Source of the DNA: Tubiluchus corallicola | Lineage: Eukaryota > Animalia > Priapulida | Direction: 5' to 3' | Assembly: GCA_030141605.1 (NCBI GenBank) | Contig: JAQGDQ010000028.1 | Coordinates: 372,001-436,000 of the forward strand | DNA length: 64,000 nt | Shown: piece after piece, positions 12,501-64,000 of the stretch | Position numbering within the stretch: position 1 is the first letter of the stretch | Layout of the letters: every line of letters starts with the position of its first letter | Program-made: the position numbers and the translations under genes | Notes under the pieces: model-generated | The model's input: the letters and a program-made list of their open reading frames with translations, nothing else | The model's database searches: none | What the model was told of the DNA's origin: nothing

Positions 12501-13596
12501 AGACCATCAATTGACGTGCGGCGGGACCTACACTAAGATAAAAGAACCAGAAAACTTCAGTAAAAAATCGTGGAAGCGTAAAAGCGAAGATGATCTTAAT
12601 GCTATTTCAAAAAAGACTAAACCCAATACACGTGATATAAAAGATTTCTTCGTAAATGGAACTCAAGCAATGCCCAAGTCGTCCTTAGACAGTGCTGAAA
12701 TTAACGGTAATGACCAAGTTGCATTTAGTTCGGGGTCTGACATTAAAACTCTTGCTGACATTAAAGCTATAGTTCCACGGAAAGAGAAATATTTGAGAAA
12801 AGAAAGCACCTCAACGATATTGAAGCCTAAATTGCATGACAACAATAACAACAACAACAATGTTGCTGCTGAAGACGATGTTTTGTTAATAAAACACCAG
12901 TTTCCTATTAACAGACGGGGTGTGAAAACTGGCTGGACGGGTAGCGTGAGCAAGGGTGTTGCTCACAGAAACCCCACTCGGCGATCCGATTTGTCCTCTT
13001 CTGTGTTGATCCCATCTATCTCGACATCTGTTCGTGCCAGTGATTGGTCAGATACTAGCCGAATGTCAGTAAAATCAGAAGAAAGACTTAGTACATTATC
13101 CAATGTGCCTGTGATAAAAAAACCTGAAGTAAATGCAGCAATAGTTAAGTCATATAATGGCTTAACGATTATTGCCAATGCAAATACTCCTATTACTAAC
13201 AGTTGTATTTCAAATAAAAAGTCTTCAGACAACAAACGTGACCCAAGGGTGTTTTCTGGAACAGGATACGTGCTTGGTACAGGTGACTCCAATTTAAAAC
13301 CCATATGTGAGAGATTTGGCAAAAGTGTTACCAAAGCAACAGTGCCAAGTACGTTGAACTCCAGCCTATCTATAGTACCTTGTAACCCAATAAGCGGTGG
13401 TATAAACAAAAGCTGTAATAGTGCGAATGAAAGTAACAAACCATTTCAAGCTGATGAAGATGCTGATGTTGTTATAACTAATCAGTCTTTTAGTACATCT
13501 AGCAAAGCTGATCTGTCCTTAGTGGAATGTCCAAACTGTCAGAAACGTGTGTTTGAATCAAAAATAAATGAACATCTTGATTACTGTTTGCTATGA
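6583..13596 (+). CDS. SPRTN: SprT-like DNA-dependent metalloprotease Spartan/DVC1 (4 coding exons)
   Basis: Exons 6583-6965, 7509-7617, 8727-8846 and 12355-13596, all GT-AG and phase-consistent. SprT domain (WSPKMTL-CAGMC...LLKLRPRKDLVETLL-HEMIH), Zn-binding HWWKCNGPC, PIP-like DIKDFF, SHP box FSGTGYVLG, C-terminal UBZ CPNC...HLDYC. Confidence 0.95.
8878..9188 (-). mobile_element. hAT-type MITE, degenerate copy, inverted relative to 11479-11901
   Basis: Long reverse-complement match to 11479-11901. Flanks TTTAGTGA / TTTAGTCA resemble an 8-bp TSD (7/8). Confidence 0.7.
10540..11010 (-). mobile_element. Degenerate LINE RT 3' fragment
   Basis: Minus strand has a PQGS-like remnant (~10930) and an F....i..WNNL-type CR1 C-terminal remnant (~10680-10720); no intact ORF. 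Confidence 0.35.
11479..11901 (+). mobile_element. hAT-type MITE
   Basis: TIRs CAGGGGCGTAT / ATACGCCCCTG; perfect 8-bp TSD CCTTTCTC at 11471-11478 and 11902-11909. Confidence 0.88.
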
Positions 13597-21400: not shown

Positions 21401-24400
21401 GAGTCGGTTTGGGAGATACAAATTGATGAGCCACGGCTCAGCCACCTCCTGATTGGACATTACTGACTCCGCGGTCACGACGAGTCTGAAGATTCTGACA
21501 ATAAAGGAGTGTTCATGGAGATCACAAATCTTCTCTCTCGATGGACCCCTGACCTGGCTACACACCTCGCCAAGTCAAGTGCCAATCCAAAGGGATACCC
21601 CAGCTACACGTCTCCCAGTTCTCAGAACGATTTGATTAAGTGCAGCGCTGATGTGATCCGTTCTGGAATTATCAAGGACGTAAAGGCAGCCAAGTATTTC
21701 GCCGTGTGCTTGGACACTACACCAGACACGAGCAAGCAAGATCAACAGTCAGTCATTCTCCGTTATGTCGATAAAAGTGGAGTGACCTGATGATCCTTGC
21801 AGTTGAGGCTGAGAAAACAAAGAATATGGACTTGAAGTCTGTGGTTGAGCTCTTCTGGAGTGATGTTCTGCGTTGGATTCCTGACAGCTAATAAATGCTT
21901 AATTAAATTTTTAATTTTAATTAAGTTTCCGTTGCTATAGATTTAAGTTAAATGCCAGTTGGGAATAAATAAATCGTTTTTCTTGCACGCAAAATACTGT
22001 TTATTTTTTTTCAAAATTATACGTTTTTTAAACAGTTAAGTTCCGCCATTATATACAGTCGGGCCCCCCCCAATTTTTTTTGGTGCACGACGCCCCTGGG
22101 CATAACATAAGATAAGTAAGATTTGAAATTTGATCATAACGTTGAGTTCTAATTCTTAATAGGTTTATTATAATGCGATTAAAAAGTATCCTACCAAAGT
22201 TACTGTCGCACTTTTCCATTATCTCATCCAGTAATAAGCAGTCTTCGAAACCCTGAAGATAAAGCAAATTTAATTCTAAATGACAAGAATATCTATAATT
22301 AATGAAAAGTGCCACAATTTTCTTCTTCTGTTTCTCAATTGTGTGATTTTTCATTAGCCCTGTAAGAAAACAGCACAAAATAATTATACAATGAATTAAA
22401 GTGCAAATAGTAATAGTGGATGAGACAGAAGCTGAAGCCATCAGACAGTCAAAATGGCGTTGACAAATTGCTTTTCATATCAACACACAAATCCAGACAC
22501 AAATACAGAAGTTGAGTTGCAATTTTTTTCACTTCTTTAACCCATATTTTGATTCAAGCGTCTTGTGGCTTTATCTTACTTGTTACTTTGTGCATCTGTA
22601 AGACCGTAAAATCACCAAAAAACTTCAAGCTCGTTATCTTTGTGAACTTACAAAAAAAGCTATTGCAAATGTTTTGGAAAATAACTATTAATATCTCCAT
22701 TGTGCATAAGGTTAATAAACATAAAAAACACTACATCCATGACTATTCACTCACCGTGTTCATGCCGGACCCATGAAATGGCACCATTGCGTGTGCTGCG
22801 TCACCCATTATCAATAAGCTACCATTAACGTGGTACGGATGACACTGAAAAAACATTCTCCAGTTTAATTTATCTAAAGCAGGTCTTCACAGAGAAACTG
22901 TATGAAGGAGAACATATAGATTAGATAGCCATTTAAGACATATTAGGAAAACCTTACATTTTTTGCTTACATCTTCTACATAGCATATACCACAATAACA
23001 CAGCAATAATGTGTCATAAAATGACAATGTATGCGGTGAAAGATCCAGCTAATTTTTTAGCTCTATTCGTAACTATAACCGAGCAGAGAAATGAAAGAAC
23101 TATCTTAAAAACAATGTCATTGTTTTAACAAAAAGCTGTCAAGTTTATCCCAGATTTACCTAGGACTTTTTTGGGCGTGAGGTAGAAGTTATAAAATTAG
23201 AATAAAATGCAAAATGGCATCAGAAAATTCTATTCTACTCAATAACAAATGTAAATATTTCTGGATGCTTTTGAACTTATATCTCACAGCAGCTGCTCCC
23301 AGTACAGATTCCTACCTTTACTTGTATTAAAGGTAATGGATCCAACTGAAAATAATCCTTCAACAAATTTTCCCTGAAAAAACAATAAAAAATAAGAACT
23401 GATAACCATTCTGCACTTGGGTCAATACATTCTCAATAAATTTATTATGTTGAGATATAAAGTATTCTACTAAAGTATTTCTCACATTATAACTGACACA
23501 AATTTCTTTCCTTATACATCATAATTATAGAACTTAATTTCTGTTCAATACAGCAGGTATGCATACATAAGTAATCAGGTATTTGAGTTTTTGAAATTTG
23601 AGTTGTATGCCCTGCAAATATGAATCAAAACTGTACATGAACTAATGCAAACAGAACATTTTGTTTTGTACAATTTGGCACTCTACAAGACAAGATACAG
23701 AAGGCGATCAACGACAGCGCATAATTAATTTTTGTATACGTAGTTATGTAGTTAGTGATGGGCTTGAGGCAGGACTTTAACCTAATTAATTATCAACATT
23801 AATGACTCAGACAAGACACTAAACCAGGAAAGATGTCTTAGCTATATTTGGGCACATATACAATCATACATTCTCTCTCAATGAGCAGCAATGTTTAACT
23901 TTTATAGTTATTTGTTTACAATATTCCACACATTTTTCTGGTTGCCTGAAAAAACAATACTATAAGACATTATAAAACAATCTTTAAAAATGATTTTCAC
24001 TACATTGTTTATAACATTAAATAAAAACTAGCTCTAATGCTTCTTCTTTGGTCAAGAAATTGAGCCACAAAAATACAGCAAAGTAAAAACGCTTTTCTAT
24101 CATAAAGCTAAAAAATATTCATAAAATTTTGTATCATCTACATGTCGTCTTACTGCACACATAGCTTCTATTAGCAGTAATGCTGTACAAAACTTGAAAA
24201 TTTAAATTCCCGTGATGACTGTTAGGTACGTTAGACAATCTTAAGAATAAGTTGTCTGAAACAGTTGTTTCAGATAACATTGATTAAATTTTGAAAAAAT
24301 AATCACAGCATTCGTAGTACACACTTTACTAACTAAGCAAAAGTTTAAATTACTTTATCTTATCAATAAAGTTGATAAAAATATGTTTTTGGTAAGCCAG

Positions 24401-30266: not shown

Positions 30267-30834
30267 ACTTTTAAAGCAAAAAACGACGTGACGCCACGCC
30301 GTAAATTACACGTGAAGCAAACTGTAGAACCCGTCTTTTGTAAAAACCGGGTTGGCACACGGACACACACTTACACATCGTCTGCTCTGCAGATCGCAGT
30401 TTGCATGCCAAATTCTGCAAAACCTTAGCACGTGCGACGTAACCTTTGACCCAACACCTGATACAAACAAAAATTAATACGCACTACAGTCTAAAAAATA
30501 AATTTGTTAATAAATGCATCCATTTAAAAAGCAAAGGACTAATTTAGGACACCCAATTATTTTTAGATAAAAAAGTGTTAATTTTATTCATATTTTTTCT
30601 TGCTTTTACACAAGTGGACTATTTTTTCTCATTTTTGTGTTTGACTTCCGGGGTTCCTAGGCACTTCCTGTAAAATCAGCAGAACTTATACTGACTTAGC
30701 TTCATTGCATGCAAACTACTTAAAAGCAAGATTGTTTCAAACTGACAGCAGTTTAATTGAAAACTAGGTGTGACATAAAGATTTCATCAGTCGTGATCAG
30801 CTGTGAATTTTACAGTCATTTATGATAAAGGAGA
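30267..30834. promoter_or_regulatory. Putative bidirectional promoter shared by KMO and CEPT
   Basis: Divergent ATGs only 568 bp apart. CACGTG E-boxes at 30309 and 30429; ETS-type ACTTCCGG (30644) and ACTTCCTG (30663); locally CpG-richer. Confidence 0.6.
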
Positions 30835-31980
30835 ATGAAGATAGAAAGCTTATCTGAGGTGCAATTGAAAAAATTGAAAGAACATAAATACAGTTGCGAA
30901 AATGTATCTATTCTGGATCCATACATGCAGGTGTTCTGGAATGCTGCTATTCAAAAATTTCCATTGTGGTTAGCTCCAAATACGATGACAATTATTGGAC
31001 TAGGTGTTAATATAATTACATCTTTGCTAGTTTTTGGTTACAATCCCGATGGAAAAAGTGACTGTCCAGCATGGGTATATGTCTTTTGTGCTGCTGGACT
31101 GTTTATATATCAAACACTAGATGCATTAGATGGCAAGCAAGCAAGGAGAACAGGATCATCTAGTCCTTTAGGAGAGCTGTTCGATCATGGATGTGATTCT
31201 ATATCTACTGTTTTTGTCACAATTGCAGTCAGCATCACTATGCAGCTAGGGCAGCGACCAGAGGTTTTATTTGCAATGATAATGTGGTCATTGTTTCTTT
31301 TCTACCTAGCTCACTGGACAACATACGTATGTGGAACTTTACGGTTTGGATACATTGATATCACAGAAGGTCAGTTTATGGCAATTGGATCATTTATTGT
31401 AACCGCCATTTTTGGAGCTGCATTCTGGGAAGCTAGAATTCCATTCCTTTATCTACCATTATGGGTCTTACCTGTACTTTTTTCAACAATAGCTGGTGGA
31501 GTAGCTGCACTGACGTGCTTTAACGTCATTTTTACTGGTGGCGTTGGAAAAAACAAATCCACTGTTGCCGATACCAGCGTTTTATTTCCAGCTGTACCAA
31601 TATTATCGGCAATTATTCCAGCTTACATTATTTATTGGAAGTCTCCAAGTCACCTTTACCAAAACCATCCATGTGTGTATTTGCTAGCGTTTGGTTTTGT
31701 GGCAGCTAAGATCACTTGCAGACTTGTAGTAGCTCATATGACAAAAAGCGAGATGGATGCTCTGGACACAGTACTGTGGGGTCCAGCACTGTTGTTTCTC
31801 AACCAATATTTTAATTGTCCAATTAGCGAGCATTTAGTTCTTTTCCTGTGTTTAATTTATTCCATTGTGAATTTAACTATGTACTCGGTGCGTGTTTGTC
31901 GGCAAATTTGTGATTATCTAAATATTTTTTGTTTTACTATTAAAAACAACAAATTACATTCTGCCTCCAATAACGGTTGA
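30835..31980 (+). CDS. CEPT1: Choline/ethanolamine phosphotransferase (CEPT1/CHPT1 family), intronless, 381 aa
   Basis: CDP-alcohol phosphotransferase motif DALDGKQARRTGSSSPLGELFDHGCD, plus LKEHKYS, WLAPN, GGVGKNKSTVA and LVVAHMTKSEM; multiple TM helices. Confidence 0.95.
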   Translation: MKIESLSEVQLKKLKEHKYSCENVSILDPYMQVFWNAAIQKFPLWLAPNTMTIIGLGVNIITSLLVFGYNPDGKSDCPAWVYVFCAAGLFIYQTLDALDGKQARRTGSSSPLGELFDHGCDSISTVFVTIAVSITMQLGQRPEVLFAMIMWSLFLFYLAHWTTYVCGTLRFGYIDITEGQFMAIGSFIVTAIFGAAFWEARIPFLYLPLWVLPVLFSTIAGGVAALTCFNVIFTGGVGKNKSTVADTSVLFPAVPILSAIIPAYIIYWKSPSHLYQNHPCVYLLAFGFVAAKITCRLVVAHMTKSEMDALDTVLWGPALLFLNQYFNCPISEHLVLFLCLIYSIVNLTMYSVRVCRQICDYLNIFCFTIKNNKLHSASNNG

Positions 31981-46000: not shown

Positions 46001-48904
46001 ACTGTTAACAATGCAGGAACAGAAATATGTCTTTTTTTGCATTTTAAATATGAAATGGAGTAAGCTTAGCTTAATAAAGAGATGTAATTAACAACTTATA
46101 TTTGTACATGTTATCTTTCTGCTGATGCTCCAGTATTGAGGGTATAGCAAAAACTGCTTTGCATTCTGCGAGCAGCCAAGATTGTTTTTGCTTGGTTGTT
46201 GAGCAATATCGCATCCTTGCACGGGTACACTGCAGCAGAATTTATGCCAAAGATACTCAGCATAATTAATATGCTATTTAAATAATGTGCTAGCTATGGC
46301 CAGCGATCAGTGGTATTGTGTATTAACCCATGGTCGATAGTTGAACTTCTTATTATGTCAATTGTCTTCTCAATTTAATGTAAATGTTTTCATTCTTTGC
46401 AGCACATTCTTTACCTTGCATACTGCCATCATTATTTTAGTATTGCTTATTATTTATTTATTATTAATTATTTTTGCCAGTTTTATGTGTCAGAGGAGCA
46501 ATAGAGCACTTATGTCAAAGAGCAAATATCCAAGCAGTTAAAGCAATTAAAGTGTAACTAGATTAGCTTCATTGCTCTGCTAACACAGCTCTTGATATTT
46601 GGCAAAAGAGACTGAATTATTGCTACATGTGCCGCAATGGACTACACAATGATATCAGTGATTTTGTAATAATTTATTGGATCTTCAAATGCAAAGTTTG
46701 CTAATGTTATGTGAGGTCAAAGTTTATATCATTCACAATAACAAAACTAGAGTTATAAGTTTGATAATCAAGTCATGTTAGCATACCTGAAAAATTAACT
46801 CACTCTTTCAGATATTATATTCAGTCAGAACTGAAAACACACAGAGCAAATTTCGGGATTTTTGCTGAAAACTTGCCTGGATTACCGTCTGCAATTTCGC
46901 CGAGTAGCACGGGTGGCTACTGGGTTGGGTTTTATGCTATTCGTAGAGCGGAGTGGTTCTCAGCTGTGGACCTGCTGTCAACCAAGACATCTTTATCTAA
47001 AGTATTAAGCAAGGTGGGTAATATTGCATCTCTAATCCGATCATAAGTTTGTCCTGACATGGCTGTCTCCTATAGTAACATTTTCAAATTCAAAAGGTCT
47101 GGACAGTTTTGCGAATCAATTTACAATTAGTCCTGTTTTAATGACTCCATGTTAATAAAGGGAGTTAACAAACATGTCGATAAAAGAAGCCATTCTTAAT
47201 ATGTGGATGTGGAATGATGGGCTGAGTTATTTTTTCAATTTGCAATGTAAAGGCACACGTGTCATTAGAGGTGTCAGTCTTGCAAATTACTACTTATTAA
47301 CTATTTTTGTGCATAGCTTATTTTTGTGGATAGCTAACACTTAAGTGAGTGGATGGCTCACTTGCTTGTGGAACTAGAACATGCTCCAAAAGTGAGCTTT
47401 TTATCACTTTGAATCAGGACCGGCTATACCACTAGCAAACTAGGCAGTTGCCAATTTCTTGAAGTAATTCATTAAGTTTTAAGTTTAGTAGCATAGTGTA
47501 TGTGTAATTTCATAAGTGCACAACACTAATTAAATGAAATGAACAAGTTGCATTATTTTCCTGTTAAAAGGTATGAGTCATACATGCGTCATCGTTGTCG
47601 TCATCATCAGCATCGTCGCCTTATTATTATTTCCTCTTCCCCTTTTTTCTCCCTTTCCTCTGTTTTTCTCCTTGTCATTTGTGGGGCAATCCTCGTGCCA
47701 TCACCTTCCATTTCTTCTTTTCTGGTGACAGCAGGAATTTATTACCCTCCAAGATTTCTCTTTCCTTAGAAAAGAATTTTTATGGATTACCTGCAGTGAT
47801 AGTAACATATCTGTCCAACTAAAATTTAAAATAATTTTGATGTACGTGTAATTCCAAAATGCATGCTGCAGTTACAGTATTTCTTTCTTTGTAACTTTAT
47901 TTGCTGCAATAACGTGTGTACTAAAAACAAACTTTAACCTGTGGCTATAACAGCCCAATTGAAAAGTCTAGTCAAATCCTATGCCACTGCTTTCCTGCAG
48001 CAAAACATTCCATTTTTGCTTTATCTGGTATCCCAAAACAAAATTGGGAGCTTGGTCGTGGAAATGGTTGACCGTTGAGGAGGGGGTCCTAAAAATACTT
48101 TTGCTTAGGGCATCAAATTACCTAGAGCCAATCCTGCTTTGCATTAATTTATCGCACTATTTTCACGTTTGAGCTTCGAGACTTTCCTACACACATTATC
48201 GCTGGCACAGGTGAACTGTGTCTGCTTTCCAAAGGTGTTATTGAGTTGTTACAAACGTTTTGGCTCACTTGATTCTTCACGTGATTTTTTACCATTCAGA
48301 TAAACATTGGGCTTCAGTACTCATAATATACAGACTTTTAAAACGTGCTACTTTTAATACATTGAAAGAACTGTTTGTTTGCTTAATGGATATTGAATTC
48401 TTGTTTAGCTGAGCTTCACATTCACACATCTATTTATGACAAACTAACAGTGAGTCATAAAGTTTCATTTCACGTTTCTTAGCAAATTTTATTTTTCATC
48501 ATTAAGTGTATCAAAAGTTCTGATTGGTCGAATTTTACTAACATTAGCTGCAACACTAGTGGCTGGCATTTCAACGGCAATTCGCATGGGAACATGTACT
48601 CACTCCATAGAACTCAATTGCTGAAATTCTCATTTCAACTTATTTAATGATATCAAGTTCGCGGAAAAGTTGTTTTAAATGGGAAATATTCTTATTTCAG
48701 TTTCTTCCTCGCAGTATGCTTCACTGGTTAGCTTTCCACAAATATGGGTTGGTGGTAAAACTAGACGAAGATGGCAACATTATACACAGTTTACATGATG
48801 CTACGGGTTATACAGTATCCTCAGTACATGCACTACAGGAAGCCGACGGATATTTGTATGTTTTTGATCAAAGCAAAAATTATATTGTAAAAATTAAATT
48901 ATGA
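40012..48904 (+). CDS. APMAP/hemomucin/strictosidine-synthase-like type II membrane beta-propeller protein, divergent (9 coding exons)
   Basis: Exons 40012-40181, 41725-41841, 42336-42442, 42773-42868, 44049-44162, 44404-44566, 45762-45905, 46812-47013, 48701-48904, phase-consistent. N-terminal TM then ESPIAP, LLPNSKL, LDANNGLY, GTIYFT..SSKW, FAENLPGLP...GGYWVG, YGLVVKLDEDGNIIHSLHD. Confidence 0.85.
40640..40900 (-). mobile_element. LINE ORF2 internal fragment in an intron
   Basis: Minus-strand KNFLHFVAAKRKDQTGALPLK resembles the KxFWxYxKxKRKxxxGIxPL segment of CR1-type ORF2. Confidence 0.45.
45417..45504. repeat. Tandem duplication of a ~43-bp unit
   Basis: gcgtgaagt(t/c)agcc(t/c)tgtaagctcgctgacggaaagcaagaat occurs twice in tandem. 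Confidence 0.85.
47415..48136. mobile_element. hAT-type MITE in an APMAP-like intron
   Basis: TIRs CAGGACCGGCT / AGCCAATCCTG (9/11); 8-bp flanks CTTTGAAT / CTTTGCAT (7/8). Confidence 0.65.
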
Positions 48905-49950: not shown

Positions 49951-50353
49951 CATTTAATAACTAATATTAACAACTTATGTTAGAATTGTGTAGTTCTTAA
50001 CAAGGTTATAACCTTTCTTAGACATGGTAATTGACTAAAAAAATTTAGTTGATAGAAAGATATTTGAGAAATGTTATAACAATATGACAAGCGCAAATGG
50101 TATAGAAACATGCTACCAATTTAGACTGAATTTGCAATATAAGTCTTGACCAAATCCAGTTCAATTACACCCTGCAAATAAGACGCAAATCTGCAGCAAA
50201 GACTCGCAAAACAACAAACTTTCAAATCTTATTTTGCATGACCACTGTCCTTTAGACAATTTATATCAATAGCCATCACGTTGAACTATGTCAGTGTTTA
50301 AGAATTTTTGTTTTAGAGCTAGAACAAGTACAGAGCCCAGTTTCGAGGTCAAA

Positions 50354-51364
50354 ATGGAATATTATAGTTTTATAGTCTTTTTGAGCCTACTGGCACTCAG
50401 CCAGGAGACCATCATAAGCGTCAACAGCATCATTCCTCAATTGTCGCAAGACATAATATACAAGCACCAAGACGCCTTGGCGACCTATGGAATCACAATA
50501 ACGGAGCCAAAACCAATCGGTTACCAGGTTGCACAGTCCTTCAAGGTAGTCAAGATTGAAATGTCTAAGGCTTGGAATGTACACTACAACCTTTTCCAAG
50601 ACAAAAGCAAAGACAACTCTTCGAATTACACAAACAGGAAAAAGAGATTTTTGGGCTTGATCATGTCAACTGCAGCCATGGCAGAAGCGACGGCCGCCTT
50701 GGCCCTTGGGGCACCAAATCGTGCTGAAATTAACTCGTTAAATGCAAAAATGAGTGAGTTAAGAAAAAACCAGGGAATTATAGCTCATGAGGTGCAGATT
50801 GCAAACAAAGAAATTGGAATCTTGGGGCACAACTTGGAGGAATTAGAAAGAGTAGTGGGAAAATTACATACTGAGTTATACAATCTGATGTTAGCTCACT
50901 CCAATGATATGAAAAGGCTCCATGACTACCTGAACTCCATCAGATACGGGCACGGTTTACAGTCTATAACTTCCACAAAAATAGACCCTTTATTGATTAG
51001 TCCGACACAGTTTGATTCTCTAATGTCAAACAAAGAAAATAATATCCCATTATCGTATGGGGCTAGCAGGGCGATCGTTATCAGATCCGAACCACAACAA
51101 TTATGGATGTTGATCAACGTGAGGGAGATTGTTCAGGTTCCAGGGAAAGTACATGTCACAACCCAAAATGTACCAATCAACCAGAATGTGGGAAGGAACA
51201 AATGCTGCTCACCAATCGAGTGCAGAAATACTTGGGAGTATCATGACATCAGGTCAGGTGGTATCGGAAAAATCCGGTCACCCCCTTGTTGGCTACATTC
51301 TCAGCCTGGTGGATTCTTGGTTATTTCTGTTATCAGAGTGGCCAAAGTGGAAGAGAATAGATAA
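50354..51364 (+). CDS. Endogenous viral class I fusion (F-like) glycoprotein, N-terminal half, copy 1 (336 aa, no TM anchor)
   Basis: Signal peptide MEYYSFIVFLSLLALSQE, sequons NSS and NYT, furin site RKKR, then a hydrophobic fusion peptide FLGLIMSTAAMAEATAALALG and a long heptad repeat, followed by a Cys-containing segment. The frame ends just past the junction with L. Confidence 0.75.
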   Translation: MEYYSFIVFLSLLALSQETIISVNSIIPQLSQDIIYKHQDALATYGITITEPKPIGYQVAQSFKVVKIEMSKAWNVHYNLFQDKSKDNSSNYTNRKKRFLGLIMSTAAMAEATAALALGAPNRAEINSLNAKMSELRKNQGIIAHEVQIANKEIGILGHNLEELERVVGKLHTELYNLMLAHSNDMKRLHDYLNSIRYGHGLQSITSTKIDPLLISPTQFDSLMSNKENNIPLSYGASRAIVIRSEPQQLWMLINVREIVQVPGKVHVTTQNVPINQNVGRNKCCSPIECRNTWEYHDIRSGGIGKIRSPPCWLHSQPGGFLVISVIRVAKVEENR

Positions 51365-52763
51365 TGTTGACCTACTAGCTCTAGCAATCACACCCAGTGA
51401 TTTCTCCTTCGTTCCATTCCTACCACCTACGTTTTTCTGTTACCATGGCCAACAAGATCGACTGACCCATGGATTAAGCTTCATGTTCTATGTTCTTAAA
51501 AACTGTGTTGATGAAACCAATCCTATCCACAAAATTGTGGCACGGCTCCTTTCGGTGAAAACTGTTGCTCCTGAGACTCTACAACTACTAACCTTAATAA
51601 AAGATCCCTGTGCTCTCAATTTTGAGCAACCAATGGCTTTGTCTACTCTATTAAAACAGACAGTACAACAAAAAGTTATTCCCATGGTCAAAAACGACAG
51701 AATTAAGATGTATTTAGATATCCTGGAAGAAGATGCTTTTCCAGGAGTGGTTAAGTATTACACTTCTATCGTTCCCTACCCAGCTAGAATTATAAACGCA
51801 ATTTTTACTTGTACTGTGATGGGTACTGCCATCAACTTCCTTGATTTTTTTGCCCAACAATCAACTTTACTGAATATGCTAGAAAAAGAAGACAAACTCA
51901 GACTAGAGACTCGGATCAACAAGGTTGAGAGGAATCTGATCAGCAGTGTCCTTAATCGACTCAAGACTCCTCAAAGTAAAAGCTGGGAAGAATTATTAAT
52001 AGAATTAAGTGGGAGCTCATCGCTTTGTTCTTATCTGATGGCAGAAGGGTTAAGAGACTCTACATGGGGCTTTAAAATAGTAGATGTGACTGCCCCTTGT
52101 CCCTGGGATCAACTCTCCCCAATATCAGTCGAGCTAGCTCAAATGAGAAAAGATGTTATTAGTTTAAGATACTCTGATTATCCAGACAAAACTGCAGTGG
52201 GGCCTTATAGAATGGTCGTAGGAAGTAGGACGAAAGAACGGATCAAGCCTTTAGTAATAGCTCCCAATATCCCAAAGGGGCTGACAAGAAGGCAATCTGT
52301 TGCCATTTTAATAAAACTCCTTTGTTGGATGGCTGACAAGCCTTTAATCGTCAAGCTCATTCAAGATGCACTTTTTGAATTGGGGGCAACCAATTATGAG
52401 GCACTAATTCCTAAGGGTTACACACTATCTCTAGGGTCAACCGCTCATCGACTAGAAGCTGCAGATAGGAAGTCATCGGTCTACTTTAACCTCAGAGACA
52501 CAGTTGCCAGCCATATAGTAATTAATACAGATAGAGCGACTCTTTATAGGGGAGAAGGGGCAGACTACACTAACAGACTACTTTTTGAGCCTACTGGCAC
52601 TCAGCCAGGAGACCATCATAAGCGTCAACAGCATCATTCCTCAATTGTCGCAAGACATAATATACAAGCACCAAGACGCCTTGGCGACCTATGGAATCAT
52701 AATAACGGAGCCAAAACCAATCGGTTACCAGGTTGCACAGTCCTTCAAGGTAGTCAAGATTGA
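51129..52763 (+). pseudogene. Endogenous negative-strand RNA virus L protein fragment, copy 1 (L-like part ~51330-52571)
   Basis: CR IV motifs (P..F...HG..DRLT, KDPCALN, VKN, PYPARII) and capping/PRNTase motifs A (CS..AE.LR..TWG..I..VT.P.P.DQ), B (GSRT), C (W) and D (HR). The RdRp GDN core is absent. Confidence 0.85.
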
Positions 52764-53569
52764 AATGTCTAAGGCTTGGAATGTACACTACAACCTTTTC
52801 CAAGACAAAAGCAAAGACAACTCTTCGAATTACACAAACAGGAAAAAGAGATTTTTGGGCTTGATCATGTCAACTGCAGCCATGGCAGAAGCGACGGCCG
52901 CCTTGGCCCTTGGGGCAACAAATCGTGCTGAAATTAACTCGTTAAATGCAAAAATGAGTGAGTTAAGAAAAAAACCAGGGAATTATAGCTCATGAGGTGC
53001 AGATTGCAAACAAAGAAATTGGAATCTTGGGGCACAACTTGGAGGAATTAGAAAGAGTAGTGGGAAAATTAAATACTGAGTTATACAATCTGATGTTAGC
53101 TCACTCCAATGATATGAAAAGGCTCCATGACTACCTGAACTCCATCAGATACGGGCACGGTTTACAGTCTATAACTTCCACAAAAATAGACCCTTTATTG
53201 ATTAGTCCGACACAGTTTGATTCTCTAATGTCAAACAAAGAAAATAATATCCCATTATCGTATGGGGCTAGCAGGGCGATCGTTATCAGATCCGAACCAC
53301 AACAATTATGGATGTTGATCAACGTGAGGGAGATTGTCTGAGTTCCAGGAAAGTACATGTCACAACCCAAAATGTACCAATCAACCAGAATGTGGAAGCG
53401 AAACAAATGCTGCTCACCAATCGAGTGCAGAAATACTTGGGAGTATCATGACATCAGGTCAGGTGGTATCGGAAAAATCCGGTCACCCCCTTGTTGGCTA
53501 CATTCTCAGCCTGGTGGATTCTTGGTTATTTCTGTTATCAGAGTGGCCAAAGTGGAAGAGAATAGATAA
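52581..53569 (+). pseudogene. Glycoprotein fragment, copy 2 (no ATG; frameshifted)
   Basis: Extra A in the A-run near 52970 and further changes near 53336-53402. Confidence 0.75.
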
Positions 53570-54968
53570 TGTTGACCTACTAGCTCTAGCAATCACACCC
53601 AGTGATTTCTCCTTCGTTCCATTCCTACCACCTACGTTTTTCTGTTACCATGGCCAACAAGATCGACTGACCCATGGATTAAGCTTCATGTTCTATGTTC
53701 TTAAAAACTGTGTTGATGAAACCAATCCTATCCACAAAATTGTGGCACGGCTCCTTTCGGTGAAAACTGTTGCTCCTGAGACTCTACAACTACTAACCTT
53801 AATAAAAGATCCCTGTGCTCTCAATTTTGAGCAACCAATGGCTTTGTCTACTCTATTAAGACAGACAGTACAACAAAAAGTTATTCCCATGGTCAAAAAC
53901 GACAGAATTAAGATGTATTTAGATATCCTGGAAGAAGATGCTTTTCCAGGAGTGGTTAAGTATTACACTTCTATCGTTCCCTACCCAGCTAGAATTATAA
54001 ACGCAATTTTTACTTGTACTGTGATGGGTACTGCCATCAACTTCCTTGATTTTTTTGCCCAACAATCAACTTTACTGAATATGCTAGAAAAAGAAGACAA
54101 ACTCAGACTAGAGACTCGGATCAACAAGGTTGAGAGGAATCTGATCAGCAGTGTCCTTAATCGACTCAAGACTCCTCAAAGTAAAAGCTGGGAAGAATTA
54201 TTAATAGAATTAAGTGGGAGCTCATCGCTTTGTTCTTATCTGATGGCAGAAGGGTTAAGAGACTCTACATGGGGCTTTAAAATAGTAGATGTGACTGCCC
54301 CTTGTCCCTGGGATCAACTCTCCCCAATATCAGTCGAGCTAGCTCAAATTAGAAAAGATGTTATTAGTTTAAGATACTCTGATTATCCAGACAAAACTGC
54401 AGTGGGGCCTTATAGAATGGTCGTAGGAAGTAGGACGAAAGAACGGATCAAGCCTTTAGTAATAGCTCCCAATATCCCAAAGGGGCTGACAAGAAGGCAA
54501 TCTGTTGCCATCTTAATAAAACTCCTTTGTTGGATGGCTGACAAGCCTTTAATCGTCAAGCTCATTCAAGATGCACTTTTTGAATTGGGGGCAACCAATT
54601 ATGAGGCACTAATTCCTAAGGGTTACACACTATCTCTAGGGTCAACCGCTCATCGACTAGAAGCTGCAGATAGGAAGTCATCGGTCTACTCTAACCTCAG
54701 AGACACAGTTGCCAGCCATATAGTAATTAATACAGATAGAGCGACTCTTTATAGGGGAGAAGGGGCAGACTACACTAACAGACTACTTTTTGAGCCTACT
54801 GGCACTCAGCCAGGAGACCATCATAAGCGTCAACAGCATCATTCCTCAATTGTCGCAAGACATAATATACAAGCACCAAGACGCCTTGGCGACCTATGGA
54901 ATCATAATAACGGAGCCAAAACCAATCGGTTACCAGGTTGCACAGTCCTTCAAGGTAGTCAAGATTGA
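53334..54968 (+). pseudogene. L fragment, copy 2 (L-like part ~53535-54776)
   Basis: Near-identical to copy 1; frame open. Confidence 0.85.
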
Positions 54969-55764
54969 AATGTCTAAGGCTTGAATGGGCAACCTTTTCC
55001 AAGACAAAAAGCAAAGACAACTCTTCGAATTACACAAACAGGAAAGAGATTTTTGGGCTTGATCATGTCAAACTGCAGCCATGGCAGAAGGATGGCCGCC
55101 TATTCCCTTAGCAACAAATCGTGCTGAAATTAACTCGTTAAATGCAAAAATGAGTGAGTTAAGAAAAAACCAGGGAATTATAGCTCATGAGGTGCAGATT
55201 GCAAACAAAGAAATTGGAATCTTGGGGCACAACTTGGAGGAATTAGAAAGAGTAGTGGGAAAATTAAATACTGAGTTATACAATCTGATGTTAGCTCACT
55301 CCAATGATATGAAAAGGCTCCATGACTACCTGAACTCCATCAGATACGGGCACGGTTTACAGTCTATAACTTCCACAAAAATAGACCCTTTATTGATTAG
55401 TCCGACACAGTTTGATTCTCTAATGTCAAACAAAGAAAATAATATCCCATTATCGTATGGGGCTAGCAGGGCGATCGTTATCAGATCCGAACCACAACAA
55501 TTATGGATGTTGATCAACGTGAGGGAGATTGTTCAGGTTCCAGGGAAAGTACATGTCACAACCCAAAATGTACCAATCAACCAGAATGTGGGAAGGAACA
55601 AATGCTGCTCACCAATCGAGTGCAGAAATACTTGGGAGTATCATGACATCAGGTCAGGTGGTATCGGAAAAATCCGGTCACCCCCTTGTTGGCTACATTC
55701 TCAGCCTGGTGGATTCTTGGTTATTTCTGTTATCAGAGTGGCCAAAGTGGAAGAGAATAGATAA
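54786..55764 (+). pseudogene. Glycoprotein fragment, copy 3 (disrupted)
   Basis: Cluster of indels at 54980-55110 destroys the furin site and fusion peptide. Confidence 0.75.
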
Positions 55765-57163
55765 TGTTGACCTACTAGCTCTAGCAATCACACCCAGTGA
55801 TTTCTCCTTCGTTCCATTCCTACCACCTACGTTTTTCTGTTACCATGGCCAACAAGATCGACTGACCCATGGATTAAGCTTCATGTTCTATGTTCTTAAA
55901 AACTGTGTTGATGAAACCAATCCTATCCACAAAATTGTGGCACGGCTCCTTTCGGTGAAAACTGTTGCTCCTGAGACTCTACAACTACTAACCTTAATAA
56001 AAGATCCCTGTGCTCTCAATTTTGAGCAACCAATGGCTTTGTCTACTCTATTAAGACAGACAGTACAACAAAAAGTTATTCCCATGGTCAAAAACGACAG
56101 AATTAAGATGTATTTAGATATCCTGGAAGAAGATGCTTTTCCAGGAGTGGTTAAGTATTACACTTCTATCGTTCCCTACCCAGCTAGAATTATAAACGCA
56201 ATTTTTACTTGTACTGTGATGGGTACTGCCATCAACTTCCTTGATTTTTTTGCCCAACAATCAACTTTACTGAATATGCTAGAAAAAGAAGACAAACTCA
56301 GACTAGAGACTCGGATCAACAAGGTTGAGAGGAATCTGATCAGCAGTGTCCTTAATCGACTCAAGACTCCTCAAAGTAAAAGCTGGGAAGAATTATTAAT
56401 AGAATTAAGTGGGAGCTCATCGCTTTGTTCTTATCTGATGGCAGAAGGGTTAAGAGACTCTACATGGGGCTTTAAAATAGTAGATGTGACTGCCCCTTGT
56501 CCCTGGGATCAACTCTCCCCAATATCAGTCGAGCTAGCTCAAATTAGAAAAGATGTTATTAGTTTAAGATACTCTGATTATCCAGACAAAACTGCAGTGG
56601 GGCCTTATAGAATGGTCGTAGGAAGTAGGACGAAAGAACGGATCAAGCCTTTAGTAATAGCTCCCAATATCCCAAAGGGGCTGACAAGAAGGCAATCTGT
56701 TGCCATTTTAATAAAACTCCTTTGTTGGATGGCTGACAAGCCTTTAATCGTCAAGCTCATTCAAGATGCACTTTTTGAATTGGGGGCAACCAATTATGAG
56801 GCACTAATTCCTAAGGGTTACACATTATCTCTAGGGTCAACCGCTCATCGACTAGAAGCTGCAGATAGGAAGTCATCGGTCTACTTTAACCTCAGAGACA
56901 CAGTTGCCAGCCATATAGTAATTAATACAGATAGAGCGACTCTTTATAGGGGAGAAGGGGCAGACTACACTAACAGACTACTTTTTGAGCCTACTGGCAC
57001 TCAGCCAGGAGACCATCATAAGCGTCAACAGCATCATTCCTCAATTGTCGCAAGACATAATATACAAGCACCAAGACGCCTTGGCGACCTATGGAATCAT
57101 AATAACGGAGCCAAAACCAATCGGTTACCAGGTTGCACAGTCCTTCAAGGTAGTCAAGATTGA
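55529..57163 (+). pseudogene. L fragment, copy 3 (L-like part ~55730-56971)
   Basis: Near-identical to copy 1; frame open. Confidence 0.85.
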
Positions 57164-57968
57164 AATGTCTAAGGCTTGGAATGTACACTACAACCTTTTC
57201 CAAGACAAAAGCAAAGACAACTCTTCGAATTACACAAACAGGAAAAAGAGATTTTTGGGCTTGATCATGTCAACTGCAGCCATGGCAGAAGCGACGGCCG
57301 CCTTGGCCCTTGGGGCAACAAATCGTGCTGAAATTAACTCGTTAAATGCAAAAATGAGTGAGTTAAGAAAAAACCAGGGAATTATAGCTCATGAGGTGCA
57401 GATTGCAAACAAAGAAATTGGAATCTTGGGGCACAACTTGGAGGAATTAGAAAGAGTAGTGGGAAAATTAAATACTGAGTTATACAATCTGATGTTAGCT
57501 CACTCCAATGATATGAAAAGGCTCCATGACTACCTGAACTCCATCAGATACGGGCACGGTTTACAGTCTATAACTTCCACAAAAATAGACCCTTTATTGA
57601 TTAGTCCGACACAGTTTGATTCTCTAATGTCAAACAAAGAAAATAATATCCCATTATCGTATGGGGCTAGCAGGGCGATCGTTATCAGATCCGAACCACA
57701 ACACTTATGGATGTTGATCAACGTGAGGGAGATTGTTCAGGTTCCAGGGAAAGTACATGTCACAACCCAAAATGTACCAATCAACCAGAATGTGGGAAGG
57801 AACAAATGCTGCTCACCAATCGAGTGCAGAAATACTTGGGAGTATCATGACATCAGGTCAGGTGGTATCGGAAAAATCCGGTCACCCCCTTGTTGGCTAC
57901 ATTCTCAGCCTGGTGGATTCTTGGTTATTTCTGTTATCAGAGTGGCCAAAGTGGAAGAGAATAGATAA
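56981..57968 (+). pseudogene. Glycoprotein fragment, copy 4 (open frame, native ATG missing)
   Basis: ORF 56985..57968 keeps RKKR/FLG but begins inside the signal peptide. Confidence 0.75.
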
Positions 57969-59367
57969 TGTTGACCTACTAGCTCTAGCAATCACACCCA
58001 GTGATTTCTCCTTCGTTCCATTCCTACCACCTACGTTTTTCTGTTACCATGGCCAACAAGATCGACTGACCCATGGATTAAGCTTCATGTTCTATGTTCT
58101 TAAAAACTGTGTTGATGAAACCAATCCTATCCACAAAATTGTGGCACGGCTCCTTTCGGTGAAAACTGTTGCTCCTGAGACTCTACAACTACTAACCTTA
58201 ATAAAAGATCCCTGTGCTCTCAATTTTGAGCAACCAATGGCTTTGTCTACTCTATTAAAACAGACAGTACAACAAAAAGTTATTCCCATGGTCAAAAACG
58301 ACAGAATTAAGATGTATTTAGATATCCTGGAAGAAGATGCTTTTCCAGGAGTGGTTAAGTATTACACTTCTATCGTTCCCTACCCAGCTAGAATTATAAA
58401 CGCAATTTTTACTTGTACTGTGATGGGTACTGCCATCAACTTCCTTGATTTTTTTGCCCAACAATCAACTTTACTGAATATGCTAGAAAAAGAAGACAAA
58501 CTCAGACTAGAGACTCGGATCAACAAGGTTGAGAGGAATCTGATCAGCAGTGTCCTTAATCGACTCAAGACTCCTCAAAGTAAAAGCTGGGAAGAATTAT
58601 TAATAGAATTAAGTGGGAGCTCATCGCTGTGTTCTTATCTGATGGCAGAAGGGTTAAGAGACTCTACATGGGGCTTTAAAATAGTAGATGTGACTGCCCC
58701 TTGTCCCTGGGATCAACTCTCCCCAATATCAGTCGAGCTAGCTCAAATTAGAAAAGATGTTATTAGTTTAAGATACTCTGATTATCCAGACAAAACTGCA
58801 GGGGGGCCTTATAGAATGGTCGTAGGAAGTAGGACGAAAGAACGGATCAAGCCTTTAGTAATAGCTCCCAATATCCCAAAGGGGCTGACAAGAAGGCAAT
58901 CTGTTGCCATTTTAATAAAACTCCTTTGTTGGATGGCTGACAAGCCTTTAATCGTCAAGCTCATTCAAGATGCACTTTTTGAATTGGGGGCAACCAATTA
59001 TGAGGCACTAATTCCTAAGGGTTACACATTATCTCTAGGGTCAACCGCTCATCGACTAGAAGCTGCAGATAGGAAGTCATCGGTCTACTTTAACCTCAGA
59101 GACACAGTTGCCAGCCATATAGTAATTAATACAGATAGAGCGACTCTTTATAGGGGAGAAGGGGCAGACTACACTAACAGACTACTTTTTGAGCCTACTG
59201 GCACTCAGCCAGGAGACCATCATAAGCGTCAACAGCATCATTCCTCAAGTGTCGCAAGACATAATATACAAGCACCAAGACGCCTTGGCGACCTATGGAA
59301 TCATAATAACGGAGCCAAAACCAATCGGTTACCAGGTTGCACAGTCCTTCAAGGTAGTCAAGATTGA
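57733..59367 (+). pseudogene. L fragment, copy 4 (L-like part ~57934-59175)
   Basis: Near-identical to copy 1; frame open. Confidence 0.85.
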
Positions 59368-60172
59368 AATGTCTAAGGCTTGGAATGTACACTACAACCT
59401 TTTCCAAGACAAAAGCAAAGACAACTCTTCGAATTACACAAACAGGAAAAAGAGATTTTTGGGCTTGATCATGTCAACTGCAGCCATGGCAGAAGCGACG
59501 GCCGCCTTGGCCCTTGGGGCAACAAATCGTGCTGAAATTAACTCGTTAAATGCAAAAATGAGTGAGTTAAGAAAAAACCAGGGAATTATAGCTCATGAGG
59601 TGCAGATTGCAAACAAAGAAATTGGAATCTTGGGGCACAACTTGGAGGACTTAGAAAGAGTAGTGGGAAAATTAAATACTGAGTTATACAATCTGATGTT
59701 AGCTCACTCCAATGATATGAAAAGGCTCCATGACTACCTGAACTCCATCAGATACGGGCACGGTTTACAGTCTATAACTTCCACAAAAATAGACCCTTTA
59801 TTGATTAGTCCGACACAGTTTGATTCTCTAATGTCAAACAAAGAAAATAATATCCCATTATCGTATGGGGCTAGCAGGGCGATCGTTATCAGATCCGAAC
59901 CACAACAATTATGGATGTTGATCAACGTGAGGGAGATTGTTCAGGTTCCAGGGAAAGTACATGTCACAACCCAAAATGTACCAATCAACCAGAATGTGGG
60001 AAGGAACAAATGCTGCTCACCAATCGAGTGCAGAAATACTTGGGAGTATCATGACATCAGGTCAGGTGGTATCGGAAAAATCCGGTCACCCCCTTGTTGG
60101 CTACATTCTCAGCCTGGTGGATTCTTGGTTATTTCTGTTATCAGAGTGGCCAAAGTGGAAGAGAATAGATAA
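59185..60172 (+). pseudogene. Glycoprotein fragment, copy 5 (open frame, native ATG missing)
   Basis: ORF 59189..60172. Confidence 0.75.
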
Positions 60173-61571
60173 TGTTGACCTACTAGCTCTAGCAATCACA
60201 CCCAGTGATTTCTCCTTCGTTCCATTCCTACCACCTACGTTTTTCTGTTACCATGGCCAACAAGATCGACTGACCCATGGATTAAGCTTCATGTTCTATG
60301 TTCTTAAAAACTGTGTTGATGAAACCAATCCTATCCACAAAATTGTGGCACGGCTCCTTTCGGTGAAAACTGTTGCTCCTGAGACTCTACAACTACTAAC
60401 CTTAATAAAAGATCCCTGTGCTCTCAATTTTGAGCAACCAATGGCTTTGTCTACTCTATTAAGACAGACAGTACAACAAAAAGTTATTCCCACGGTCAAA
60501 AACGACAGAATTAAGATGTATTTAGATATCCTGGAAGAAGATGCTTTTCCAGGAGTGGTTAAGTATTACACTTCTATCGTTCCCTACCCAGCTAGAATTA
60601 TAAACGCAATTTTTACTTGTACTGTGATGGGTACTGCCATCAACTTCCTTGATTTTTTTGCCCAACAATCAACTTTACTGAATATGCTAGAAAAAGAAGA
60701 CAAACTCAGACTAGAGACTCGGATCAACAAGGTTGAGAGGAATCTGATCAGCAGTGTCCTTAATCGACTCAAGACTCCTCAAAGTAAAAGCTGGGAAGAA
60801 TTATTAATAGAATTAAGTGGGAGCTCATCGCTTTGTTCTTATCTGATGGCAGAAGGGTTAAGAGACTCTACATGGGGCTTTAAAATAGTAGATGTGACTG
60901 CCCCTTGTCCCTGGGATCAACTCTCCCCAATATCAGTCGAGCTAGCTCAAATTAGAAAAGATGTTATTAGTTTAAGATACTCTGATTATCCAGACAAAAC
61001 TGCAGTGGGGCCTTATAGAATGGTCGTAGGAAGTAGGACGAAAGAACGGATCAAGCCTTTAGTAATAGCTCCCAATATCCCAAAGGGGCTGACAAGAAGG
61101 CAATCTGTTGCCATTTTAATAAAACTCCTTTGTTGGATGGCTGACAAGCCTTTAATCGTCAAGCTCATTCAAGATGCACTTTTTGAATTGGGGGCAACCA
61201 ATTATGAGGCACTAATTCCTAAGGGTTACACACTATCTCTAGGGTCAACCGCTCATCGACTAGAAGCTGCAGATAGGAAGTCATCGGTCTACTTTAACCT
61301 CAGAGACACAGTTGCCAGCCATATAGTAATTAATACAGATAGAGCGACTCTTTATAGGGGAGAAGGGGCAGACTACACTAACAGACTACTTTTTGAGCCT
61401 ACTGGCACTCAGCCAGGAGACCATCATAAGCGTCAACAGCATCATTCCTCAATTGTCGCAAGACATAATATACAAGCACCAAGACGCCTTGGCGACCTAT
61501 GGAATCATAATAACGGAGCCAAAACCAATCGGTTACCAGGTTGCACAGTCCTTCAAGGTAGTCAAGATTGA
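59937..61571 (+). pseudogene. L fragment, copy 5 (L-like part ~60138-61379)
   Basis: Near-identical to copy 1; frame open. Confidence 0.85.
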
Positions 61572-62377
61572 AATGTCTAAGGCTTGGAATGTACACTACA
61601 ACCTTTTCCAAGACAAAAGCAAAGACAACTCTTCGAATTACACAAACAGGAAAAAGAGATTTTTGGGCTTGATCATGTCAACTGCAGCCATGGCAGAAGC
61701 GACGGCCGCCTTGGCCCTTGGGGCAACAAATCGTGCTGAAATTAACTCGTTAAATGCAAAAATGAGTGAGTTAAGAAAAAAACCAGGGAATTATAGCTCA
61801 TGAGGTGCAGATTGCAAACAAAGAAATTGGAATCTTGGGGCACAACTTGGAGGAATTAGAAAGAGTAGTGGGAAAATTAAATACTGAGTTATACAATCTG
61901 ATGTTAGCTCACTCCAATGATATGAAAAGGCTCCATGACTACCTGAACTCCATCAGATACGGGCACGGTTTACAGTCTATAACTTCCACAAAAATAGACC
62001 CTTTATTGATTAGTCCGACACAGTTTGATTCTCTAATGTCAAACAAAGAAAATAATATCCCATTATCGTATGGGGCTAGCAGGGCGATCGTTATCAGATC
62101 CGAACCACAACAATTATGGATGTTGATCAACGTGAGGGAGATTGTTCAGGTTCCAGGGAAAGTACATGTCACAACCCAAAATGTACCAATCAACCAGAAT
62201 GTGGGAAGGAACAAATGCTGCTCACCAATCGAGTGCAGAAATACTTGGGAGTATCATGACATCAGGTCAGGTGGTATCGGAAAAATCCGGTCACCCCCTT
62301 GTTGGCTACATTCTCAGCCTGGTGGATTCTTGGTTATTTCTGTTATCAGAGTGGCCAAAGTGGAAGAGAATAGATAA
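61389..62377 (+). pseudogene. Glycoprotein fragment, copy 6 (frameshifted)
   Basis: Same extra A in the A-run (~61780) as copy 2. Confidence 0.75.
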
Positions 62378-63680
62378 TGTTGACCTACTAGCTCTAGCAA
62401 TCACACCCAGTGATTTCTCCTTCGTTCCATTCCTACCACCTACGTTTTTCTGTTACCATGGCCAACAAGATCGACTGACCCATGGATTAAGCTTCATGTT
62501 CTATGTTCTTAAAAACTGTGTTGATGAAACCAATCCTATCCACAAAATTGTGGCACGGCTCCTTTCGGTGAAAACTGTTGCTCCTGAGACTCTACAACTA
62601 CTAACCTTAATAAAAGATCCCTGTGCTCTCAATTTTGAGCAACCAATGGCTTTGTCTACTCTATTAAGACAGACAGTACAACAAAAAGTTATTCCCATGG
62701 TCAAAAACGACAGAATTAAGATGTATTTAGATATCCTGGAAGAAGATGCTTTTCCAGGAGTGGTTAAGTATTACACTTCTATCGTTCCCTACCCAGCTAG
62801 AATTATAAACGCAATTTTTACTTGTACTGTGATGGGTACTGCCATCAACTTCCTTGATTTTTTTGCCCAACAATCAACTTTACTGAATATGCTACAAAAA
62901 GAAGACAAACTCAGACTAGAGACTCGGATCAACAAGGTTGAGAGGAATCTGATCAGCAGTGTCCTTAATCGACTCAAGACTCCTCAAAGTAAAAGCTGGG
63001 AAGAATTATTAATAGAATTAAGTGGGAGCTCATCGCTTTGTTCTTATCTGATGGCAGAAGGGTTAAGAGACTCTACATGGGGCTTTAAAATAGTAGATGT
63101 GACTGCCCCTTGTCCCTGGGGTCAACTCTCCCCAATATCAGTCGAGCTAGCTCAAATTAGAAAAGATGTTATTAGTTTAAGATACTCTGATTATCCAGAC
63201 AAAACTGCAGTGGGGCCTTATAGAATGGTCGTAGGAAGTAGGACGAAAGAACGGATCAAGCCTTTAGTAATAGCTCCCAATATCCCAAAGGGGCTGACAA
63301 GAAGGCAATCTGTTGCCATTTTAATAAAACTCCTTTGTTGGATGGCTGACAAGCCTTTAATCGTCAAGCTCATTCAAGATGCACTTTTTGAATTGGGGGC
63401 AACCAATTATGAGGCACTAATTCCTAAGGGTTACACACTATCTCTAGGGTCAACCGCTCATCGACTAGAAGCTGCAGATAGGAAGTCATCGGTCTACTTT
63501 AACCTCAGAGACACAGTTGCCAGCCATATAGTAATTAATACAGATAGAGCGACTCTTTATAGGGGAGAAGGGGCAGACTACACTTTATGTTTCCAAGAGG
63601 TCTTCTGTGCTTTAATGACAATGAATGCTGTATCTAAATATCACCTAGTATCTAACCCTCACCAAGCACTACCAAACTGA
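62142..63680 (+). pseudogene. L fragment, copy 6, with native continuation (L-like part ~62343-63670)
   Basis: Past the repeat end it reads DYTLCFQEVFCAL, supplying the F-Q of PRNTase motif E that copies 1-5 lack. Confidence 0.85.
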
Positions 63681-64000
63681 CCAGGTCAGTTACTCTTGTC
63701 CAGCTCCAAGTGATTTACATGCGGTCAACACAAAAAGAGAAGCACTGAAAAATGTATCAGCCGTTTTTGAACCTCTTGGATGGATTAGTCCTTTATTAGT
63801 CGAAGCAAAGAGATTCATAGCAACATTATGGAAAGAACATGTCGATTGGGACACTGTGTTCACCCAAGAGCAGCAAGTTCAATGGGAAAATGTTGCAAAC
63901 ACCTTATCATCAATTTACAGTCTGAGGATTCCCAGATACACTGAAACAGGTGATTTTAGCAAAGTAGATATTGTGTCATTCAGTGACAGCTCTTCATGGT
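63673..64000 (+). mobile_element. BEL/Pao LTR retrotransposon pol fragment (RT-RNase H connector, Peptidase_A17-type region), continuing past the window
   Basis: Open frame not in the ORF track: TDQVSY...TKREALKNVSAVFEPLGWISPLLVEAKRFIATLWKEHVDWD...QW...LRIPRY...IVSFSDSS. It matches the Pao pattern TKRxxLxxxxxxFDPLGxxxP...AK...LW....WD...IPR...FxDAS. Confidence 0.85.

Follow-up and report, generated by a model that had tools for sequence, protein, structure and literature searches.

In the nematode Bursaphelenchus xylophilus, a nodavirus RdRp lies inside a Bel/Pao element (eBxnv-1), and copy-choice by the reverse transcriptase (RT) has been proposed as its origin; the accessible text of that report describes two LTRs, a primer site, a purine tract, a gene of a positive-strand virus, a single copy and a degenerate pol (PMC5177903). 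In Aedes, EVEs are enriched on the same strand beside Pao and gypsy elements (10.1101/127498, PMC5497376). Chuviridae EVEs occur there beside Pao, one EVE lies within a full-length Pao, and template switching has been proposed (10.1101/127498, PMC5497376, PMC6797480). Hybrid DNA of viruses and LTR elements has been described in infected cells, with homology apparently not needed for its formation (PMC6797480). Elements that have captured an env gene include mosquito BEL/Pao with a chuvirus-like glycoprotein, Roo, and errantiviruses with an F-type env (PMC13524379). In the priapulid Priapulus caudatus, a flavivirid-derived EVE of a divergent lineage is on record (10.1101/2021.09.19.460981). These accounts follow the accessible portions of the sources cited. 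In the literature searched, which lay mostly outside subscription papers, this flavivirid was the only priapulid EVE, and no negative-strand RNA virus was reported in priapulids.

The locus considered here lies at the right end of a 64,000-nucleotide window (the whole stretch of DNA analysed) from Tubiluchus. Part of a viral glycoprotein gene (G) joined to part of an L gene is repeated there in tandem, and the last L copy leads into BEL/Pao pol (Table 1). As in eBxnv-1, a non-retroviral RNA virus is joined to Bel/Pao pol outside arthropods. Unlike in eBxnv-1, as far as the accessible text describes it, the virus is negative-strand, the left LTR is absent, pol is young with an open frame, and the viral fragment forms a tandem array. 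Membership in the class of viruses lying between two LTRs was rejected, because the left side has no 5′ LTR, no primer site and no 5′ genes of Pao. With the Aedes EVEs, the locus shares the same-strand adjacency of EVE and LTR element. In their accessible descriptions, however, the Aedes cases are mostly statistical adjacencies within mosquito piRNA clusters, whereas the Tubiluchus breakpoint is placed at single-base resolution by comparison with the family of the element itself and has an ordinary gene-bearing flank. The linkage of an LTR element to viral fusion-glycoprotein sequence, F-like in Tubiluchus, recalls the env-capturing elements. In the accessible account those are intact, repeated elements with a whole env, whereas the Tubiluchus G is truncated, fused to L and placed upstream of a 5′-truncated pol. 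An env-carrying retrotransposon was also considered and rejected, since G is cut at no more than about 270 codons, where L follows, and the 5′ half of the element is missing. The locus resembles the Priapulus caudatus EVE in being an RNA-virus EVE of divergent lineage in a priapulid, but that EVE derives from a positive-strand virus, and no retrotransposon junction is mentioned in the accessible part of its report (10.1101/2021.09.19.460981).

Virus capture by Bel/Pao being already published, what is new here is the host and the virus lineage. The mechanism of capture is seldom visible to the base because the EVE and the retrotransposon have usually decayed; at the Tubiluchus locus each remains about 99% intact, and the genome still carries the donor family. 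The locus is also a fossil of an unplaced negative-strand RNA virus lineage in a likely priapulid host. We regard the virus-Pao junction as a real feature, and its mechanism as plausible and of a known kind, if short of proof.

Table 1. Coordinates of the viral, retrotransposon and host features in the 64,000-nucleotide window
Feature	Position	Strand	Basis
Host CEPT1-like gene, not part of the element	30835..31977	+	68% to Priapulus caudatus
Left flank, AT-rich, low depth	49280..50324		Contig depth mostly ~12 in X2 and ~179 in X3; repeats form short peaks
Candidate 5′ UTR of the viral insert	50325..50353	+	X3 flank contig fits to 50324
Viral glycoprotein gene (G), 5′ part, cut where L starts	50354..51167	+	ORF; end inferred from start of L homology
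Six-unit tandem G-L array	50377..63584	+	Unit of ~2196 nt plus 9-nt linker
L fragment, copy 6	62181..63584	+	End of RdRp domain and capping domain; Pfam PF00946 and PF14318 above cut-off
Single-copy L continuation past the array	63585..63623	+	13 codons; profile score gain, bornavirus L alignment
42 nt open in the L frame	63624..63665	+	Score equals shuffles; Pao family contigs do not fit
BEL/Pao pol, from the Trp motif after RT into the PF05380 region	63666..64000	+	Open frame, continues past the window end

The junction between viral L and Bel/Pao pol

The L frame of the last array copy comprises 514 aa, of which residues 16-496 (62181-63623) aligned with 281 bits to a profile built from 30 other L proteins. 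This frame stays open beyond the array end at 63584 up to a stop at 63678-63680. Adding the 27-codon tail beyond the array raised the L profile score from 257.7 to 280.4 bits (+22.7), a value reached by none of 200 shuffles of the tail, and a bornavirus L also aligned across 63584. The gain came from the first 13 codons of the tail; the last 14 (63624-63665) scored no better than shuffles and may represent variable L sequence or filler.

On the other side, positions 63667-63999 matched profile positions 1-89 of PF05380 with 75.7 bits (E 5.2e-21; cut-off 22.3), and the 335 nt of Pao in view, up to 64000, was 44% identical to one Pao protein and 35% to another. Contigs of the same Pao family from three of four sequencing runs (X1, X2 and X3, with none from X5) match the window from 63666 onwards and have loose 5′ ends, placing the breakpoint at 63665/63666. 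When 30 letters of these loose ends were read by hand, they contained a conserved K-x-LG-x-x-W motif, RT itself lying outside those letters. In the protein P0002, this motif is found at residue 1016, between RT (858-985) and PF05380 (1051-1212), and the cut at the Tubiluchus locus falls on its Trp codon. The family contigs differ from the window by 1-4 letters per 130-185 nt, some with a 9-nt gap; members of this young, repeated family are about 98-99% alike. Its depth relative to the left flank was approximately 5-10× in X2 and X3 and 2-4× in X1, which is a rough figure and differs from copy number. Among 316 metagenome contigs, one was a distant Pao (34%).

Frames are open on both sides of the junction, and neither an LTR nor an element terminus was found there. 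L and pol share a strand and differ in frame; given also the L stop at 63678-63680, the locus makes no L-Pol fusion protein. No contig of X1, X2 or X3 covers 63585-63665, where the bin depth is 10/87 of the array depth, and none covers the left link at 50325-50376 either. Short connectors seem to have been dropped from the contigs, and the coverage hole at 63585-63665 is evidence neither for nor against the junction. A 7-bp hairpin at 63675-63691 was rejected as evidence because the same kind occurs 63 times in 50 kb.

The earlier note had described L as continuing for about 90 nt after copy 6 and then switching near 63660-63680, without a spacer and on the same strand, into the middle of an open Pao pol frame with no LTR or terminus at the junction. 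The family contigs agree with the position of this switch, and together with the PF05380 match and the ORF they bear out the shared strand, the entry in mid-frame and the BEL/Pao identity of the downstream frame; the absence of a terminus also stands. The run-on is open in the L frame and measures 81 nt, with recognisable L reaching 63623, and the absence of a spacer is unproven, since up to 42 nt (63624-63665) could be filler.

The virus, its tandem array and the left flank

Each array unit consists of the 5′ part of the glycoprotein gene joined to the middle of the L gene, with the G-to-L junction at 51168 in copy 1 and at 62181 in copy 6; a codon-usage scan placed this switch only loosely (51150-51204). 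The joint lacks the remaining 3′ portion of G and about 740-800 codons from the start of L, and the genome order is kept. The locus contains neither a complete G nor a complete L.

Judged from its sequence, the glycoprotein looks, if faintly, like a class I, F-like protein, having a hydrophobic N-terminus, a basic cleavage site, a fusion-peptide-like stretch and a long helix. Its match to Pfam Fusion_gly (E 0.006) fell below the cut-off, the comparison with a PDB fusion protein gave E 0.89, and in its top Atlas match (0.94) Fusion_gly occurred in 26% of the members, with a low recognition score. A fold search with G returned no match at E ≤ 0.001, the single-sequence model being poor (pLDDT 43); the single-sequence fold of L was also poor (pLDDT 33). 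For L, the Atlas gave no usable match and a word-based protein search gave no match, and neither of two pattern matches among viral contigs was confirmed.

The L fragment had 230 protein matches at E ≤ 0.001, none of them reaching 1e-30; among the 150 listed, identity was 20-29%, a short repeat-like match at 40% being the one exception. No close relative was found among 1.84 billion representatives. The best-scoring match was Beihai rhabdo-like virus 3, of the nyamivirus group (26%, E 1e-26), followed by nyami-, lispi-, arto- and xinmo-type proteins. In trees (FastTree, 131 rows; IQ-TREE quick search, 35 rows), the 495-aa fragment lay outside the nyamivirus clade, on a long unstarred branch beside the chuvirus group and in no starred clade. 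Its closest known counterparts are L proteins of Nyamiviridae (Berhavirus group) and Jingchuvirales, and in both trees it falls between chuviruses and Mononegavirales. Berhaviruses come from echinoderms and sipunculids (PMC10010136). On the L sequence, the virus is to be read as an unplaced lineage of Monjiviricetes, with no family assignable.

The array units start at 50377, 52581, 54786, 56981, 59185 and 61389, and the last ends at 63584; a 9-nt linker follows every unit except copy 6. The copies differ pairwise by 5-19 substitutions per 2196 nt. The G start codon (ATG, 50354) is present in copy 1 only, and L past the unit end in copy 6 only, which argues that an inner segment of one longer insert was duplicated in tandem. 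The array thus likely arose by tandem amplification at the DNA level after a single G-L chimera had been captured. In the linkers (52572-52580 and four others), seven of the nine nucleotides repeat L sequence just upstream; this weakly resembles a templated insertion of the kind made in polymerase-theta-type repair, and would arise by chance about 5 times in 100.

Contigs from X1, X2 and X3, runs that come from two studies, contain the head-to-tail joint between units, and in X1 contigs the unit formed an unbranched loop. The runs of one of the two studies containing the unit are DNA by our guess, the sample of X2-X4 is possibly the source of the assembly and so not independent, and no RNA run was listed among those with the unit. 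Array depth was approximately 8-17× flank depth in four runs, compared with six copies assembled, although contig depth, as the tool warns, is no measure of copy number. A collapsed assembly, length variation or sister arrays may account for the excess. Copies 2 and 3 also show clustered differences resembling consensus errors; together with the excess depth, these indicate that the array assembly is imperfect.

On the left, the flank up to 50308-50324 is covered in X2 and X3 by long low-depth contigs with 0-1 other letters. The X3 flank contig leaves the window after 50324, with 11 non-fitting letters, 29 nt before the G start codon; this departure is a candidate left breakpoint, or a second allele. 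Repeats in the flank form short peaks at a distance of at least about 1 kb. No LTR-like or long repeated element, primer site or Pao gag/pol was found left of the viral insert, and a tblastn search of the window with a full Pao Gag-Pol matched only at the window end, with nothing left of 63721. Lacking a left LTR and a 5′ Pao half, the insert neither sits as cargo in a complete provirus nor marks a clean insertion into an intact Pao. The earlier note had suggested that the array could be cargo of a virus-Pao chimera and that a matching LTR might be sought left of 50310. No repeated LTR is present there, and the anatomy of the array is that of later tandem duplication. As worded, carriage of the whole array is therefore unlikely; probably one unit was captured, and the array arose afterwards.

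Possible origins of the virus-Pao junction

We favour, with a probability of roughly 60%, a one-sided template switch in which the Pao RT made a virus-Pao cDNA; this value and the grading of the other origins reflect our judgement rather than a computation. During minus-strand synthesis, the Pao RT would have started at the 3′ end of its own RNA, proceeded across the integrase and RNase H regions and then jumped, at position 63666, to positive-sense viral L RNA. A second jump from L to the G message, or copying of an antigenome already deleted, would have followed, ending near the start of G. Repair-type or one-ended integration could have brought the resulting cDNA, with one retrotransposon end at most, into the germ line. 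Duplication of 50377-52571 with 9 nt of filler would then have seeded the array, which unequal exchange would have enlarged.

A switch of this kind is suggested by a break in mid-pol that has no terminus, the family contigs continuing 5′ into the post-RT motif. It is likewise suggested by the agreement in strand between the viral coding sequence and pol, as minus-strand copying of two plus-sense RNAs requires. Both partners are young, the array copies and the Pao contigs each being near-identical and the pol frame open, and the Pao family is repeated. The insert already contains a second junction, virus to virus, from G to L in genome order. Furthermore, the 5′ half of Pao does not lie left of the insert, where one would remain had the virus simply inserted into an intact element. 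Against these points, the absence of a left LTR and primer site excludes normal two-ended integration and requires an extra step. The filler-joined duplication is a rearrangement at the DNA level, so that deletion might also have made the junction; strand agreement is a one-in-two chance, the 42 nt before the junction may be filler, and LTR pol is not rare in the window (gypsy pol at 167-3981). The template switch by a Pao RT put forward in the earlier note is thus the most economical origin and has precedent in the accessible parts of published reports (PMC5177903, 10.1101/127498, PMC6797480), but it is not proven.

Alternatively, virus cDNA and a Pao copy could have arrived separately at one spot, in either order, and a deletion could then have removed the rest of L together with the 5′ half of Pao. 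The absent left LTR would require no special step, strand agreement would be a coin toss, the 42 nt at 63624-63665 could be repair filler, and DNA-level rearrangement with filler is seen at the locus. However, a young low-copy Pao must then have inserted no more than a few kb from a young EVE and shed gag, protease, RT and the 5′ LTR, with the rest staying about 99% family-like, and its 5′ half has left no trace anywhere in the window. We consider this sequence of events possible, though on the unlikely side. A viral cDNA made by another RT, from a LINE or another LTR family, could also have patched a break and recombined with a Pao copy or cDNA, Pao being the landing partner. The one-sided structure without an LTR and the presence of other retroelements (the gypsy pol) are consistent with this, but the viral piece stops in mid-L, with neither a poly(A) tail nor a gene end at its 3′ end, and no second retroelement touches the insert, which makes such an origin quite improbable. 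Lower still we place a misassembly where a collapsed repeat ends. The depth of about 8-17 units per flank copy against six assembled, and the differences clustered in copies 2 and 3 in the manner of consensus errors, would suit it, yet 63585-63623 is L sequence outside the repeat unit that could not be built from the array, and the frames are open on both sides of the junction.

Host setting and neighbouring features

The EVE is embedded in host DNA, with host genes within the same window. The best match of the CEPT1-like gene was Priapulus caudatus (68%), the other 119 matches listed reaching at most 58%, and in a tree of 42 rows the gene was sister to Priapulus with 100/100 support; this tree used 41 of the 120 matches, chosen to span phyla, with Priapulus as the only named scalidophoran. 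The flanking gene suggests that the host is likely a priapulid or a member of a close phylum. Arthropod EVEs had been cited as precedent; an arthropod setting is not supported for this locus, where the flanking CEPT1 gene groups with Priapulus.

A further contig of 2049 nt (depth 88.8 in X1) fits 62329-62363 with five differences, and its loose ends are shared by X2 and X3. Either loose end, translated in the same frame, gives L sequence in which most residues are similar. This contig is likely a second, diverged and repeated L-derived EVE of the same species. A wider reading, in which a deep, undescribed F-type negative-strand lineage has recently entered a priapulid germ line more than once via a currently active Pao family, and the captured pieces are multiplied into arrays that act as heritable sources of antiviral small RNA, would count the contig as an independent case. 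We consider this doubtful; if true, it would extend mosquito-style EVE immunity to Scalidophora.

The CEPT1-like gene is intronless, consisting of one open frame (30829-31980). Exons of a Spartan-like protease gene (PF22934) lie at 6571-13596. A last exon, putatively strictosidine-synthase-like, lies at 48611-48904 and ends about 1.4 kb upstream of the viral insert. The gypsy-type pol at 167-3981 is unrelated and spans several frames, with RT, RNase H and integrase. A DUF4371 fragment is present at 21467-21790, which we take to be probably a decayed DNA transposon.
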